Positions 9,631-12,935 of a stretch of DNA of 32,000 nt are shown here, piece after piece. Source of the stretch: Bacillus subtilis subsp. subtilis str. 168 (GTDB lineage: Bacteria; Bacillota; Bacilli; Bacillales; Bacillaceae); NCBI RefSeq assembly GCF_000009045.1, contig NC_000964.3:3570001-3602000 (forward strand), written 5' to 3'. The position numbers and the translations under genes were made by a program. The notes under the pieces were generated by a model. That model was given only the letters and a program-made list of their open reading frames with translations. It did no database searches and was not told where the DNA came from. Every line of letters begins with the position of its first letter. Positions within the stretch are counted from its first letter, which is position 1.

Positions 9631-9675
9631 ATCAAAATAAAAATCTCCCACTCATTGTTTGAATAGGAGATTTTT
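9631..9675 (-). terminator. Rho-independent terminator ending the yvcA-yvcB-small ORF operon
   Basis: Minus-strand RNA AAAAAUCUCC-17 nt loop-GGAGAUUUUU followed by AUUUUG. Begins 4 nt after the stop of the 119-aa ORF. Confidence 0.8.
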
Positions 9676-9678
9676 GTG

Positions 9679-10038
9679 TTAGACATCTTTCACTGGCTTC
9701 TTTTTTCTGTAAGTCAATGTTACATCCTGCTGTCGCAGGTCTTCTATTATCATTTTGTACCGATCAACTTTTGCGGTATGTTCTTCTTTTATCATCTGAA
9801 GGGCAGCTTTTCGTTTTTCGCTATTAGACTCAAGCTCTTTTTTTATTTTTTTTACAATCAACCCTTTTTGCCCTTTGATTTCCTCTTTTAATGAAGACTC
9901 AAATTTCTTTGTCAGGCTGAGAAAGTCGTTGATCGGTTGATTGAGGGTGCCCGCTTTCCCCTTCATTTCATCTTGGGTAAGAAACATATAGGTCGTTGAT
10001 ACAATTTCTGTTTCACTTTCTGAAAATAAGGAAGTCAC
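9679..10038 (-). CDS. Small highly charged, helix-prone protein of unknown function, 119 aa, GTG start
   Basis: GGAGGA RBS 9 nt upstream of GTG 10038-10036, only 14 nt after the yvcB stop, and followed directly by a terminator. No signal peptide. K/E-rich (KKFESSLKEEIKGQKGLIVKKIKKELESNSEKRKAALQMIKEEH). May be the gene annotated yvzJ in strain 168, but I am not certain. Confidence 0.7.
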   Translation of the reverse strand: MTSLFSESETEIVSTTYMFLTQDEMKGKAGTLNQPINDFLSLTKKFESSLKEEIKGQKGLIVKKIKKELESNSEKRKAALQMIKEEHTAKVDRYKMIIEDLRQQDVTLTYRKKKPVKDV

Positions 10039-10052
10039 TCTTCATATTCCTC

Positions 10053-11963
10053 CTAAGACTGAAAATCAAATAACTGAGAAATCATTTCTTCTTTTTCAAA
10101 CAGCTTTTCAATACTCTCGCGGATATTTTTGATAAAATCTCTTTTTTCTGTTGTCTGTTTTTTTAATTCAGCAACAATTCCATCATTTGCAGGAAGCGCA
10201 CCTGTGTGGAATGATTCATGAACTGAGATTTTCTCCAATTTATCGAATGTGTGGCTGAAACCAGCTGCAAGCCGGAATTGAAGATCGAAGGCATAATGCG
10301 AAGGGTTTTCTTCCATATGATGAATAGCCGTGATGATCGCCTGCTTTTTGTCTATGAAGTCTTCATCGATTTCCTGACTGTAAACCTTCTGGTACTTAGA
10401 AATCGCATCTTCCATATCTTCAACGATTTTCATACCGTTTTGATAGATTCTGACAGCGGATGAGAGATTGACTTGAATCGTTTCTCCCGAGCCACTCTTC
10501 CCTGTAAAATAAATATCGGAGCCTTTATAGCTGAAGCCTTTTTCCTTTGACAAGGCGTTGAGCATTTGAACGATGCTGTGGCCGTCGACGATAAGTTTTA
10601 GTGCGTCTTTTGTTTCTGTGTCGAGTGTTTTCAATGAGGACAGAATTGATTTTACATAGTCCACTATTTCACCAACGTCTTTTAAAGCTTGCATAAATTG
10701 GCCATGTTTTAGATGGTCTATGAAATGTTCGTACCGTGACTCTATGCCTCGCATACTCGCATTAATATTCGTTAATTCTTTTTTGATGACTTTCTTTTGC
10801 GTTTCATCAATATAACCATTTTCAGCTAACTGATCTACGACCGGTCCGCTGTTTCTCAACAAGGTATGAAGAAAACCTAAAAACGACGGCAGTTCCTCTT
10901 TTATTCGGCCATACATTTGCTTAACATCATCAAAATGCTCATATAGGACACTTACTTTCTTTAAAGCGCCGTCTGTGTTTTTCACTTTTTCAATCAGGTC
11001 TATGTCTATCCCGCTGGCTGCCTTTATAAAACCGTTCAAGCCGTCTTTTTCATAGTCATCCTTATATTTTTGAAGGAATTTTTGAATTGACCTCACATCT
11101 TCGTCAGGAACCCCATCCATAATGTTTCGGATGCCTTTTACACTTGTATTTGTATCTGCCATCTTCACATCACCGAATGTAATAAAATCGGCCTTGCCGC
11201 TGACTCCATACAGCGGGTCATCTTTTGAGATGCGCTGAGTGATGTTTGTTGTTACGCCTTTGTCTTCATAATATTTTTGGATTTCTTTTTTTAACTTTTC
11301 TGGCGGGATGGAATCTATATCTTCATATTTATAACTAAATTTCCTAATAACATATCTATATAAACTTTCATCAGTTTCAAGTAATTGATCAATATTGACT
11401 TGAGCTCCATTTACCCCATAAACTTCATCATATTCTCCATCAATCAATTGCACCATAACTTGGTTATTATTTGCAAGTGAATGTCCTAAGGCGAATGTTT
11501 TTAAATCCTCAGAGTTACCTGCTGCTTTCTTTGCTTTGTTAGTAAACTCCTTTGTAGCCTCATACTGACTATGATCAATTCCTAAAAAAAGACCAAAAAA
11601 GTTATATGACCAATCCTTATTATCGGCACTACCTTCTGAAATAATCTGAAGCTGATCAATATGTTTTTTCTCATCTATTATATGGATTGCCGTTCCATCG
11701 TAACCTGATTCTCTGGTCGAACTTTGTATACTTGTATTCTGATTTACAAGTTCATTGGAGGTGTAAATTTCAATTTTCATATTCTCAGGAAGATCGTGGT
11801 GGGTTTCCTCTTTATAAATTCTGCGTATATCTGCTTCGAAATCCTTCTTAGCTTTCTTAACTTCACTCGCAATAGTTGAGGCAAACTTTTGTTTATAGTC
11901 ATATTCTAAATCAATTAACCTTAACTTTACGTTCTCATTCTCAAATACATTTTTATTTCCCAT
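10053..11963 (-). CDS. yvcB: YvcB, 636-aa uncharacterised protein: N-terminal lipase-like (GHSLA) region plus a long helix-prone C-terminal half, no signal peptide
   Basis: ATG 11963-11961 lies 1 nt after the yvcA stop. FALGHSLANN motif with the Ser162 codon at 11478-11480. AT-rich 5' portion. Remembered gene order yvcA-yvcB next to hisI. Confidence 0.9.
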   Translation of the reverse strand: MGNKNVFENENVKLRLIDLEYDYKQKFASTIASEVKKAKKDFEADIRRIYKEETHHDLPENMKIEIYTSNELVNQNTSIQSSTRESGYDGTAIHIIDEKKHIDQLQIISEGSADNKDWSYNFFGLFLGIDHSQYEATKEFTNKAKKAAGNSEDLKTFALGHSLANNNQVMVQLIDGEYDEVYGVNGAQVNIDQLLETDESLYRYVIRKFSYKYEDIDSIPPEKLKKEIQKYYEDKGVTTNITQRISKDDPLYGVSGKADFITFGDVKMADTNTSVKGIRNIMDGVPDEDVRSIQKFLQKYKDDYEKDGLNGFIKAASGIDIDLIEKVKNTDGALKKVSVLYEHFDDVKQMYGRIKEELPSFLGFLHTLLRNSGPVVDQLAENGYIDETQKKVIKKELTNINASMRGIESRYEHFIDHLKHGQFMQALKDVGEIVDYVKSILSSLKTLDTETKDALKLIVDGHSIVQMLNALSKEKGFSYKGSDIYFTGKSGSGETIQVNLSSAVRIYQNGMKIVEDMEDAISKYQKVYSQEIDEDFIDKKQAIITAIHHMEENPSHYAFDLQFRLAAGFSHTFDKLEKISVHESFHTGALPANDGIVAELKKQTTEKRDFIKNIRESIEKLFEKEEMISQLFDFQS

Positions 11964-11964
11964 C

Positions 11965-12690
11965 TTATTTCTCCTTTTTATCTATTAAAAAGGTGATAGA
12001 ATTAATTAATTTCTCAACTTTATTTTTAGCCTTTTCTTCATCTAAGGAGCATGGTTGATTTTCATTTTTGCATCCAAGGGTAAAGGCGTATTCTACTCCT
12101 AGGTTATCTTCCTCTGTAGACTTAACATATCCAAAATAACTGTATGAATAATTATATTTTCTATCAATATCGTCAAAGATGTCTTTTTTCTTGGCAGTGT
12201 AAATATCCGTTTTCTTTTTGCTGCTTTTTTTGTATTCGCCTTTATAATCATTTTTTCCACTAACAATATCTAGCATTGTCTTAGGTTCATTCGCAAAACT
12301 TTCTTCTTTGTAATATGTTACATGGCCATCAAACATTACATTGGTGTCTTTATCATAACTATTAAATCCAATACTTTCTTTGTTTTTCCCGGTTAACGAT
12401 GATCTTCTTGATAGATACTTTCCATCCTCCGGAAACAACATCCTAAACCCTTTCAGCTTAGATTCCAGCAAATAATATCCTGGTTCCTCTTCTTTTGTTG
12501 ACACCATGTACTCTCTCGTTTTCTCGTCCTGAAACGCAGGTACTTGAGGCAGATCCTTGGGATCCATGTCTTTTGGTTTTACCGCTTCTGTTTTATTGTC
12601 ATTTGTGCTGTTTTTATCATTGTCATTCATACTGCATCCTCCTGTCAGGGCAAGTAATAAGCTGAAGCAAATAAAGATGATCTTTTTCAT
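11965..12690 (-). CDS. yvcA: YvcA putative lipoprotein, 241 aa
   Basis: MKKIIFICFSLLLALTGG|CSMNDND signal peptide with a lipobox-like ALTGGC. GGAGG RBS at 12697-12701. Mature part is Lys/Asp/Asn-rich. Very AT-rich coding sequence. Confidence 0.9.
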   Translation of the reverse strand: MKKIIFICFSLLLALTGGCSMNDNDKNSTNDNKTEAVKPKDMDPKDLPQVPAFQDEKTREYMVSTKEEEPGYYLLESKLKGFRMLFPEDGKYLSRRSSLTGKNKESIGFNSYDKDTNVMFDGHVTYYKEESFANEPKTMLDIVSGKNDYKGEYKKSSKKKTDIYTAKKKDIFDDIDRKYNYSYSYFGYVKSTEEDNLGVEYAFTLGCKNENQPCSLDEEKAKNKVEKLINSITFLIDKKEK

Positions 12691-12904
12691 TACGAACCTC
12701 CACGGGTTTTGTGAGAATAGTATTCTATTTTTATATCAAAAATAATTCTATTGACCTGGTTAAGAGATGATTATTTCATCCTTTTTCATGTTACATCATG
12801 GCGGAATTTGGATAAATAGGAAATGAGACTCGGTTTTGATCTCCTTTTATTAACTAATCATATATAACACCCAATATAAATCTAAATACCTATTACTTTT
12901 TTCA

Positions 12905-12935
12905 CAAAACAAAAAGAGCCGTATCATCCGGCTCT
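12905..12935 (-). terminator. Rho-independent terminator of the his operon
   Basis: Minus-strand RNA AGAGCCG-gaugaua-CGGCUCU followed by UUUUGUUUUG, immediately after the hisI stop (12936-12938). Confidence 0.85.

Follow-up and report, generated by a model that had tools for sequence, protein, structure and literature searches.

yvcA, yvcB and a small downstream ORF look like a strain-variable toxin/immunity cassette of Bacillus subtilis

Judged from its sequence and its variation, the operon formed by yvcA, yvcB and a small ORF in Bacillus subtilis looks like a previously unrecognised strain-variable toxin/immunity cassette. In our assessment, the balance tips towards a self-contained, horizontally exchanged toxin-immunity cassette from which YvcB is likely exported by a T7SS. 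We propose that YvcB is a lipase/esterase-type toxin, that YvcA is an extracytoplasmic immunity protein, and that YvcB ends in a delivery/targeting module (residues ~449-636) with the small protein as its WXG100-like partner. Within this reading, the toxin/immunity part appears well supported by the comparisons below, and export of YvcB by T7SS is plausible by analogy. Positions refer to the window, the whole 32,000-nt stretch of DNA that was analysed, in which the relevant features are:

7745-9514, BmrA-type ABC transporter, flanking gene
9639-9675, minus strand, terminator-like hairpin at the operon end, 16-bp stem followed by a T-run
9679-10038, minus strand, small ORF, 119 aa, GTG start
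10053-11963, minus strand, yvcB, 636 aa, DUF6792 alpha/beta-hydrolase without signal peptide
10056-10619, minus strand, constant C-terminal module, YvcB ~449-636, 99-100% identical between conspecific strains
10068-10103, minus strand, C-terminal amphipathic acidic motif L621-xxx-E625-xx-I628-xxx-F632, fitting HxxxD/ExxhxxxH
10578-10580, minus strand, codon of His462, the proposed catalytic His, within the constant stretch of yvcB
10587-11153, minus strand, helical insert, YvcB 271-459, ~190 aa, after strand beta8 and before the proposed catalytic His
10620-12430, no strand assigned, hyper-divergent allele segment, mature YvcA and YvcB 1-448
11154-11783, minus strand, alpha/beta-hydrolase core, YvcB 61-270, with the GHS162LA nucleophile elbow and DD248-249 (11217-11222)
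11802-11936, minus strand, N-terminal helical hairpin in the AlphaFold2 model, YvcB 10-54
11965-12690, minus strand, yvcA, 241 aa, lipoprotein
12691-12912, minus strand, yvcA promoter and 5' region, sigma-70-like site at 12886-12857
12913-12937, minus strand, terminator-like hairpin 3' of hisI, 9-bp stem with 5 G-C pairs followed by a T-run
12936-13565, HisIE, flanking gene

Results

The genes are arranged as the original prediction described: a minus-strand trio of low G+C (0.32-0.38 over 9501-13000, against 0.42-0.54 in the flanks), held between two terminators, with 1 nt from the yvcA stop to the yvcB ATG and 14 nt from the yvcB stop to the GTG of the small ORF, which is preceded by GGAGGA 9 nt upstream. 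The hairpin at 12913-12937 is the upstream boundary of the cassette. The predicted position between bmrA and the his operon holds in the B. subtilis group only; elsewhere, the cassette is found in contexts that are unrelated to one another, most of them metabolic genes.

Conspecific B. subtilis strains share 59-76% DNA identity inside 10620-12430 and 96-100% outside. The yvcA promoter and 5' region (97% identical), the C-terminus of YvcB and the small ORF are constant between these strains, and the divergence boundary near 12430 divides YvcA into a constant part (residues 1 to ~87) and an allele-specific part (~88-241). At the sequence level, this bounded divergence of ~1.8 kb is the signature of a polymorphic toxin/immunity system with a constant module presumed to serve delivery. 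YvcA identity follows that of the N-terminal helix and hydrolase core of YvcB and tracks neither the insert nor the C-terminus. In some pairs, yvcA and the 5' part of yvcB show saturated dS against a flank dS of 0.2-0.35, while in other pairs their dS lies below that of the flanks; old allele classes therefore appear to have been swapped by recombination. Since dN/dS is < 0.3 throughout the operon, indicating purifying selection, positive selection is not supported.

YvcA, a DUF6792 protein and an ORF of 110-120 aa are linked in about 36 loci across Bacillales. In 26/26 genome loci, and likewise in every other context analysed, yvcA is the gene immediately upstream of the DUF6792 gene, and the 110-120-aa ORF follows yvcB in nearly all loci. 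The DUF6792 family is small and patchy, with 161 representatives among 1.84 billion proteins. YvcA often occurs in tandem arrays of two to six non-identical copies (six in L016; five in L002 and L033; four in L003, L006 and L027; three in L009 and L024), and many array copies are followed by a 5' fragment of yvcB; the portion kept in these orphan fragments of other genomes is the hairpin of residues 10-54. At three loci (L009, L019 and L021), yvcB is frameshifted and yvcA intact. The proposed layout of toxin, lipoprotein immunity and small partner thus has strong comparative support, none of it available to the original prediction: strict co-occurrence of the trio, YvcA arrays with yvcB remnants, pseudogenes with YvcA kept, and bounded divergence. 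Across about 18 distinct genomic contexts, no T7SS genes (EssC/FtsK_SpoIIIE, WXG100, YukD or EsaA-type) were found within 10 kb.

YvcA matches the NCBIfam model 'lipoprotein YvcA' (lipoprot_YvcA, 7.8e-140), and its homologues carry Pfam PF27181, YvcA_Mog1p, in precomputed annotation. The lipobox recognised earlier is borne out by its conservation, as LTGGC is present in 51/51 full-length homologous copies.

YvcB matches Pfam PF20591 (DUF6792, 5.8e-64), a member of the AB_hydrolase clan. In an alignment spanning 26-93% identity, H161, S162 and H462 are invariant across the family and D249 is conserved in at least 90%. The GHSLA motif comprises residues 160-164, with the Ser162 codon at 11478-11480, and His462 is the sole conserved histidine of YvcB outside GHS. 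In the AlphaFold2 model (pLDDT 78), the nucleophile follows beta5, the acid beta7 and the histidine beta8, which is the canonical topology; the catalytic triad is most likely Ser162-Asp249-His462. A fold search with this model returned only weak alpha/beta-hydrolase matches, with E-values of at least 0.04 against solved hydrolases. Clan membership and the conserved Ser-Asp-His together uphold the hydrolase reading of YvcB. The suggested split into an N-terminal lipase and a C-terminal helical domain is partly right, because His462 comes after the helical insert of ~190 aa, so that the hydrolase extends beyond the N-terminal third. What had been taken for a helical targeting domain of ~350 aa is in fact two parts, the insert within the hydrolase and the constant module of ~190 aa (449-636). 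The insert, whose helical part takes up residues ~279-459 and which was called an insertion in PMC11878206, is the most variable part of YvcB and has its own allele classes; the hydrolase core co-varies with YvcA.

Besides the His loop, the constant module has a small beta-sheet (477-499) and two long helices, 500-566 and 594-631. Its C-terminal motif, which fits the WXG100 pattern, is found in the same register in 59 of the 62 representatives of the family; as the pattern also turns up by chance, in 12% of unrelated C-termini and in 18% of shuffled sequences, the motif is weak evidence by itself. The small ORF is conserved together with this module. Its product is modelled as strand-helix-helix-strand, with the invariant G59 in the hairpin turn, so that the expected helix-prone protein is recovered as a helical hairpin but, with its terminal beta-ribbon, is not purely helical. 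About 40 of the best 50 PDB matches to this fold are WXG100/ESAT-6 proteins (Foldseek probability 0.85-0.94, TM <=0.67, weak E-values of 0.2-2), a helical hairpin being a simple fold; by its model, we regard the small protein as weakly WXG100-like. Profile-profile comparison with WXG100 gave 2.7% probability for the small ORF, for which no sequence homology was found, and 5.5% for the YvcB C-terminus. The Pfam LXG and WXG100 models matched neither YvcB nor six small-ORF homologues.

Discussion

How might such a cassette work? YvcB would act from outside the membrane on the envelope lipids of neighbouring cells, while YvcA, tethered as a lipoprotein to the outside of the producer's membrane, would neutralise the cognate hydrolase allele. 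YvcB ~449-636 and the 119-aa protein may together form the export signal. The pairs TslA-TlaA and TslM-TlaM suggest, by analogy, that the exporter would most likely be the DegU-controlled T7SSb of the yuk/yue locus. T7SS export stays inferential, because there is neither an LXG/WXG100 sequence signal nor a nearby T7SS gene.

The resemblance to the Tsl1 system of Staphylococcus aureus (TslA/TilA/TlaA1/TlaA2, PMC10730906), on which the original prediction was built, holds for the layout but is not supported as homology. In both, the operon order is immunity lipoprotein, toxin and small partner(s), the lipoprotein immunity occurs in variable tandem copy number, and the toxin gene is sometimes missing or broken with the immunity genes retained. 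However, the families differ: the hydrolase belongs to DUF6792, the immunity fold is YvcA_Mog1p here and DUF576 in TilA, and the single small partner, which has no family, stands against two (TlaA1/TlaA2). The TslA triad (S164, D224, H251) is wholly N-terminal, whereas His462 of YvcB lies past the 190-aa insert, and enterococci carry TslA homologues within their T7SS loci, whereas no YvcB member was found in a T7SS locus. The more recent Tsl2 system of S. aureus (TslM/TilM/TlaM, PMC13560087, 2026) also features a reverse lipase toxin that needs one small helical-hairpin partner encoded next to it, and arrays of non-identical immunity genes are common to both. TlaM, however, is a true WXG100 protein by sequence, unlike the YvcB partner with its additional terminal beta-strands, and TilM is a signal-anchored DUF1433 membrane protein rather than a lipoprotein. 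Bacillus homologues of Tsl2 are ~400 aa long and linked to DUF1433 and WXG100 genes, and therefore represent a different family from YvcB.

The same toxin/immunity pair could instead be released by lysis, vesicles or another route, with the small protein as a cytoplasmic chaperone or stabiliser of the C-terminal module. The toxin/immunity evidence fits this equally, as do the lack of a T7SS neighbour in about 18 contexts, the missing WXG100/LXG sequence signal and the terminal beta-strands, which WXG100 proteins do not have. We nevertheless consider this route unlikely: WXG100 proteins are the nearest fold matches of the small protein, the conserved acidic amphipathic motif of YvcB resembles that of T7SS substrates, and both known Bacillota lipase toxins with lipoprotein or membrane immunity use T7SS. 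The LXG toxin genes of B. subtilis likewise, to our knowledge, lie away from the T7SS locus. DegU regulation also ties the operon to those of the T7SS and the LXG toxins: intermediate DegU~P is reported to activate the yvcA promoter (PMC3033389), and the yukE T7SS operon depends on DegSU, as do four LXG toxin operons.

DegU control is also what might be expected if the operon were a housekeeping or developmental envelope module, in which YvcB, as an esterase in the cytoplasm or associated with the membrane, would act on lipids or lipoproteins of its own cell in biofilm maturation and sporulation, and YvcA would be its partner or regulator outside the membrane. YvcA is required for complex colony architecture, which is altered by its loss, yvcB deletion yields deformed spores with distortions and cavities, and neither phenotype is obviously a consequence of an interbacterial toxin; purifying selection across the entire operon fits as well. 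This explanation seems improbable to us, since it does not account for the arrays of non-identical lipoproteins with truncated yvcB remnants, the frequent yvcB pseudogenes beside retained yvcA, the confinement of low identity to a 1.8-kb segment or the unrelated insertion contexts, some beside restriction/defence genes, and the family is small and patchy. Three of these contexts, in which the cassette adjoins McrBC, an nSTAND3/PDDEXK_7/methylase/HNH cluster or a DUF3427 helicase, together with the island-like low G+C, would suit a role in phage defence or abortive infection, with YvcB as a lipase-like effector. We give this very little credence: most contexts are metabolic, PADLOC models gave no meaningful match (the best, an unrelated reverse transcriptase model, at E = 0.0087), and an arrayed, exported lipoprotein with allele-specific co-variation suits immunity against a toxin outside the cell and does not suit the sensing of phage.

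The toxin-immunity cassette that we favour also invites comparison with the LXG toxins of the same organism (YeeF, YobL, YokI, YqcG, YwqJ and YxiD; PMC8321402), of which 4/6 operons are under DegSU control, as is the yvcA promoter. These, too, are strain-variable toxin/antitoxin pairs in biofilms, with genes scattered away from the yuk locus. LXG toxins combine a constant N-terminal LXG domain with a variable C-terminal toxin and a cytoplasmic antitoxin encoded downstream. The YvcB cassette is a mirror image, with the variable toxin N-terminal, the constant module C-terminal and the immunity gene upstream, its product being extracytoplasmic. In other bacteria, the Tle lipase effectors of the T6SS are alpha/beta-hydrolases that act extracytoplasmically and are countered at the same site by Tli lipoprotein immunity. 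The pairing of lipase toxin and lipoprotein immunity is alike, but the hosts are Gram-negative, the secretion machine is another and the families are unrelated. Tandem non-identical immunity genes with truncated toxin fragments, and allele replacement by recombination in constant flanks, are likewise described for CDI, Rhs and staphylococcal T7SS orphan arrays (Garrett et al. 2022). In contrast to those arrays, what remains of yvcB behind each immunity copy is a fragment from the 5' end of the toxin gene, as expected for a toxin that varies at its N-terminal end.

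Organization of the cassette and its protein families

The cassette comprises three tightly packed minus-strand genes, bracketed by terminator-like hairpins and flanked by a BmrA-type ABC transporter gene and hisIE:

7745-9514, BmrA-type ABC transporter gene, flanking the cassette
9675-9639, minus strand, terminator-like hairpin bracketing the operon
9679-10038, minus strand, small ORF, 119 aa, GTG start
10053-11963, minus strand, yvcB, 636 aa
11965-12690, minus strand, yvcA, 241 aa
12937-12913, minus strand, terminator-like hairpin bracketing the operon
12936-13565, hisIE, flanking the cassette

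After the stop codon of yvcA, a single nucleotide precedes the ATG of yvcB, and 14 nt separate the yvcB stop from the GTG of the small ORF, which has a GGAGGA 9 nt on its 5' side. G+C is 0.32-0.38 within the cassette, compared to 0.42-0.54 in its surroundings. The original prediction had described the locus in just these terms (three packed minus-strand ORFs, their spacing, the hairpins and the low G+C), and this description was confirmed as given.

YvcB belongs to DUF6792 (PF20591; residues 38-252, 215.9 bits against a gathering cutoff of 25, 5.8e-64), a domain present in all YvcB homologues; at E ≤ 1, the hydrolase region has no other Pfam match. The family, which has no assigned function, was newly placed in the AB_hydrolase clan and described as carrying a helical bundle inserted directly ahead of the catalytic His (PMC11878206), an account with which our own YvcB alignments agree. 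H161 and S162 of the GHSLA motif and H462 are invariant, H462 being the sole conserved His apart from that of GHS, and at least 90% of sequences keep D249 in an alignment reaching down to 26% identity, a share that falls below 85% in a wider alignment of 62 sequences. In the AlphaFold2 model (pLDDT 78), the placement of S162, D249 and H462 fits a nucleophile after β5, an acid after β7 and a His after β8. The modelled elements are:

Residues 10-54, N-terminal helical hairpin
Residues 63-270, alpha/beta core
Residues 279-459, helices ahead of the His462 loop
Following helices 279-459, His462 loop
Residues 477-499, small sheet
Residues 500-566 and 594-631, long helices

YvcB had been divided in the original prediction into a lipase third and a helical targeting domain of ~350 aa. 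The helical region is there, but the split is only partly right, because about half of this region is an insert within the hydrolase fold. A fold search of the model against the PDB (Foldseek) returned weak alpha/beta-hydrolase matches alone (cutinase, PETase and esterases; E ≥ 0.04) and neither LXG nor EsxA. The LXG domain (PF04740) was not detected in YvcB at E ≤ 1. Sequence searches of YvcB against PDB chains, both as a single sequence and as a profile, gave coiled-coil noise and nothing else.

YvcA matches the NCBIfam model 'lipoprotein YvcA' (NF058635; 464 bits, cutoff 285, 7.8e-140), and precomputed annotations assign its homologues to PF27181 (YvcA_Mog1p), a recent Pfam family; searched directly against a local copy of Pfam, the homologues gave no match. 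The signal peptide and lipobox Cys are kept in all 51 full-length copies collected.

The small protein and its distant homologues match no family in Pfam or NCBIfam. G59, Q104 and Y110 are invariant or nearly so, and the model (pLDDT 75) consists of a strand (9-18), two helices (22-54 and 60-102) and a second strand (103-112). WXG100/ESAT-6 proteins, among them B. anthracis EsxB, S. aureus EsxA, CFP-10/ESAT-6, GBS1074 and Geobacillus EsxA, account for about 40 of its top 50 fold matches in the PDB, with Foldseek probabilities of 0.85-0.94 and TMt of 0.56-0.67 at weak E-values of 0.2-2. The W-x-G turn is absent: the protein of the window has no Trp, and only G59 is conserved at the turn. Small ORFs have no Pfam match to WXG100 (PF06013), and hhalign gave a probability of 2.7%; across the small-ORF family, the YvcB C terminus, the N-terminal helices and the insert, hhalign against the WXG100 alignment ranged from 0.1 to 5.5%. 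Searching PDB chains with the small-ORF profile yielded coiled-coil noise only. In its modelled fold the small protein appears weakly WXG100-like, a likeness that does not extend to a relationship at the sequence level. The single best fold match is a non-WXG100 protein of Synechococcus annotated as function unknown (PDB 4dci; E = 0.011, probability 0.99), whose alignment spans the full length of the small protein, possibly including the terminal strands. An FxxxD motif, F19-D23 in the protein of the window, was dropped as a candidate, since homologues do not keep it.

Linkage, yvcA arrays and genomic context

The DUF6792 family is small: 1.84 billion proteins yield 161 representatives at 50% identity. 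Almost all of these representatives are full length; the architecture is therefore a fixed unit. In 26 of 26 loci from representative genomes, the gene immediately upstream of the DUF6792 gene encodes a YvcA homologue. These loci extend from the B. subtilis group as far as Shouchella and Alkalicoccobacillus, where identity is 30%, and the same adjacency recurs in all other contexts inspected, which come from Numidum, Jeotgalibacillus, Salipaludibacillus and uncultured Bacillota. An ORF of 110-120 aa follows downstream in nearly all cassette loci.

Frequently, yvcA forms a tandem array of two to six non-identical copies: six in Bacillus sp. WMMC1349, five in B. tequilensis and Jeotgalibacillus, four in B. 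mexicanus, B. stercoris and genome GCA_001889165, and three in B. halotolerans and Shouchella oshimensis. Behind many of these copies lies a remnant of the yvcB 5' end, and in three genomes yvcB is frameshifted while yvcA is intact. In four of the arrays (loci L003, L007, L009 and L017), the same 5' leader, whose longest ORFs read ...NPWRFVMKK, precedes every yvcA copy; the duplicated unit therefore extends beyond the coding sequence and comprises the leader, yvcA and a 5' fragment of yvcB. Two genomes contain two separate cassettes each. In the second cassettes of Bacillus sp. WMMC1349 (L015) and B. changyiensis (L018), no small ORF was detected 3' of yvcB, and a minus-strand gene is found there instead; the other copies in the same genomes (L016 and L019) do have one, so a single partner may serve both toxins.

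Beyond the B. subtilis group the cassette is found in unrelated contexts, three of which adjoin restriction or defence genes:

Niallia taxi (L014), 6427-10093, McrBC system beside the cassette
GCA_001889165 (L027), 1-2714 and 12979-18310, nSTAND3 / DUF2357-PDDEXK_7 / Hol_Tox / DNA methylase / HNH cluster beside the cassette
Alkalicoccobacillus (L023), 16610-19495, DUF3427 helicase beside the cassette

These neighbours suggest that the cassette inserts into variable islands. A function of the cassette in phage defence was considered and rejected, as PADLOC gave no meaningful match to any defence protein model.

A variable module joined to a constant one

When the DNA of the window was compared with two conspecific B. 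subtilis genomes, identity was 96-100% over the his operon, bmrA, the small ORF and the yvcB 3' end, and dropped abruptly to 59-76% between ~10620 and ~12430. This divergent stretch encodes YvcB residues 1 to ~448 and YvcA residues ~88-241. A variable, putative toxin-plus-immunity module is joined to a constant module consisting of YvcB ~449-636 and the small ORF, and His462 falls within the constant part of yvcB. This is the layout expected for a toxin whose variable end is N-terminal, and it mirrors the variable/constant layout of LXG, CDI and Rhs systems.

Across species, YvcA identity follows the N-terminal helices and the hydrolase core of YvcB, not the insert or C terminus: L001 and L017 have a YvcA of 91-95% and a core of 94-95% identity, while in L002-L004 YvcA is at 63-67% and the core at 69-76%, despite an insert of 89-93% and a C terminus of 94-96%. 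Between strains with a flank dS of 0.2-0.35, synonymous divergence has reached saturation in yvcA and in the 5' part of yvcB; in other pairs it lies below that of the flanks. Together, this points to old allele classes shuffled by recombination with a breakpoint inside yvcB. Positive selection was not shown, with dN/dS below 0.3 throughout.

The YvcB insert (residues 271-459; window 10587-11153) has its own allele classes, which follow neither YvcA nor the hydrolase core; L002-L004 share the insert of the window without sharing its core. It could cover the active site as a lid, bind a receptor or contribute to the contact with the immunity protein. In the constant stretch of yvcA, encoding early mature YvcA (window 12430-12640, residues ~18-87; also in L001-L034), we noticed a linear motif, (K/E)DMDPKDLPQVPAFQDE. 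It is conserved from B. subtilis to Shouchella (AEMDPADLPQIDAFQ), with the remainder of YvcA falling below 30% identity, and may serve either to anchor recombination or to contact the constant YvcB module. A second, far milder patch of divergence lies in the interior of bmrA (8250-8999), where identity to the conspecific strains is 93-96% versus 98-100% in the adjoining sequence.

Proposed toxin/immunity function and possible export route

Family-wide adjacency of putative toxin and immunity genes, immunity arrays with orphan toxin fragments, and a variable-constant joint with breakpoints are each hallmarks of polymorphic toxin-immunity systems, and each is seen here. From these genomic patterns we consider it likely that the cassette is such a system, in which YvcB would be toxic and YvcA would neutralize it. 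YvcA is required for complex colony architecture (PMC3033389), and this defect could reflect self-intoxication of cells deprived of immunity. Alternatively, the genes could form a housekeeping or developmental envelope module rather than a weapon. This is improbable in our judgement, given arrays, fragments and allele classes of the kind described; its main support is the published observation that yvcB deletion yields deformed spores, which the toxin reading does not explain.

But how would such a toxin leave the cell? YvcB has no signal peptide and the putative immunity protein is extracytoplasmic, which implies non-Sec export. TslA and TslM, the two lipase toxins with such a layout known from Bacillota, are both substrates of the T7SS, and both have a targeting domain at the C terminus and small helical partners (PMC10730906; PMC13560087). 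At the extreme C terminus of YvcB, L621-xxx-E-xx-I-xxx-F632 is in register in 59 of 62 representatives and conforms to HxxxD/ExxhxxxH, a pattern reported from WXG100 proteins (PMC3935865), although a motif of this kind arises by chance in 12-18% of controls and so lends weak support. The yvcA promoter depends on DegU~P (PMC3033389), and DegSU dependence is likewise on record for the yukE T7SS operon and for four LXG operons. We count this regulation, the TslA/TslM precedent, the small-protein fold and the C-terminal motif in favour of export by the T7SSb; against it stand the chance rate of the motif, the missing LXG and WXG100 profile signals and the lack of T7SS neighbours. Weighing these, we regard T7SS export of YvcB as a serious possibility, to which we give slightly less than even credence.

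The cassette resembles both staphylococcal systems in how it would work, Tsl1 (TslA with the lipoprotein TilA and partners TlaA1/TlaA2) and Tsl2 (TslM with TilM and the partner TlaM), while membership of either was not shown. The original prediction had read it as a TslA-type cassette: the layout does resemble Tsl1, but a DUF576 immunity protein and two Tla partners are absent. Its hydrolase belongs to a different family, DUF6792, and its putative triad is split by a large insert. Immunity is provided by a DUF576 lipoprotein in Tsl1 and a DUF1433 membrane protein in Tsl2, whereas YvcA is a Mog1p-like lipoprotein in which Pfam finds no DUF576. Instead of the two helical partners of Tsl1, there is a single small ORF, whose product is non-WXG100 by sequence and has a beta-ribbon; neither DUF1433 nor the WXG100 domain of the Tsl2 partner (PF06013) was matched by Pfam in YvcA or the small ORFs. 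For Tsl1- or Tsl2-like systems, some members inside or beside T7SS clusters would be expected, but no T7SS genes were seen within 7-10 kb on each side in ~18 distinct contexts of the 161-representative family.

Tentatively, and with somewhat less confidence than we place in T7SS export by itself, the observations can be combined into a third family of reverse-architecture T7SS lipases, unrelated in sequence to Tsl1 and Tsl2 and found even in laboratory strains of B. subtilis, with a split triad and a yvcA defect caused by self-intoxication. Such a design would be new: Ser and Asp would reside in the strain-variable module, to which an equally strain-variable lipoprotein would confer immunity, and His and the C-terminal helices would make up a constant export module bound by a divergent WXG100-like hairpin.

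Implications

In B. subtilis, the reference organism among Gram-positive bacteria, LXG toxins are to our knowledge the only ones currently credited to the T7SS. The TslM paper (August 2026, PMC13560087) counts just two reverse-architecture T7SS substrate families, both staphylococcal lipases, and in the literature searched, no paper connects YvcB, DUF6792 or YvcA with toxin/immunity or the T7SS. If correct, a third, independent family would point to a general association of lipases with reversed targeting, and would assign a function to one DUF family, one lipoprotein family and one unannotated small-protein family. It would also give a simple account of the yvcA biofilm phenotype and place a kin-discrimination locus, separating conspecific strains, beside the his operon. 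Strain engineering makes wide use of the yvcA-hisI interval for integration, and insertions there that disrupt a putative immunity gene could bring side effects.

Other features of the window

A further low-G+C stretch (5001-6000; G+C 0.35-0.38) has a strongly negative AT skew (-0.29 to -0.36) and corresponds to the 5' part and upstream region of a gene for a PcsB coiled-coil / NlpC-P60 peptidoglycan hydrolase (4363-5784). Two plus-strand genes (19521-21268) run counter to most others in the window: one for a Peptidase_C39-like protein (19521-20363) and, next to it, one for a pectate lyase (20603-21268). Finally, a minus-strand ORF of 1290 aa (28040-31912) with lamin-tail and calcineurin-like phosphoesterase domains probably encodes a large secreted or wall-associated protein of the nuclease/phosphatase type.
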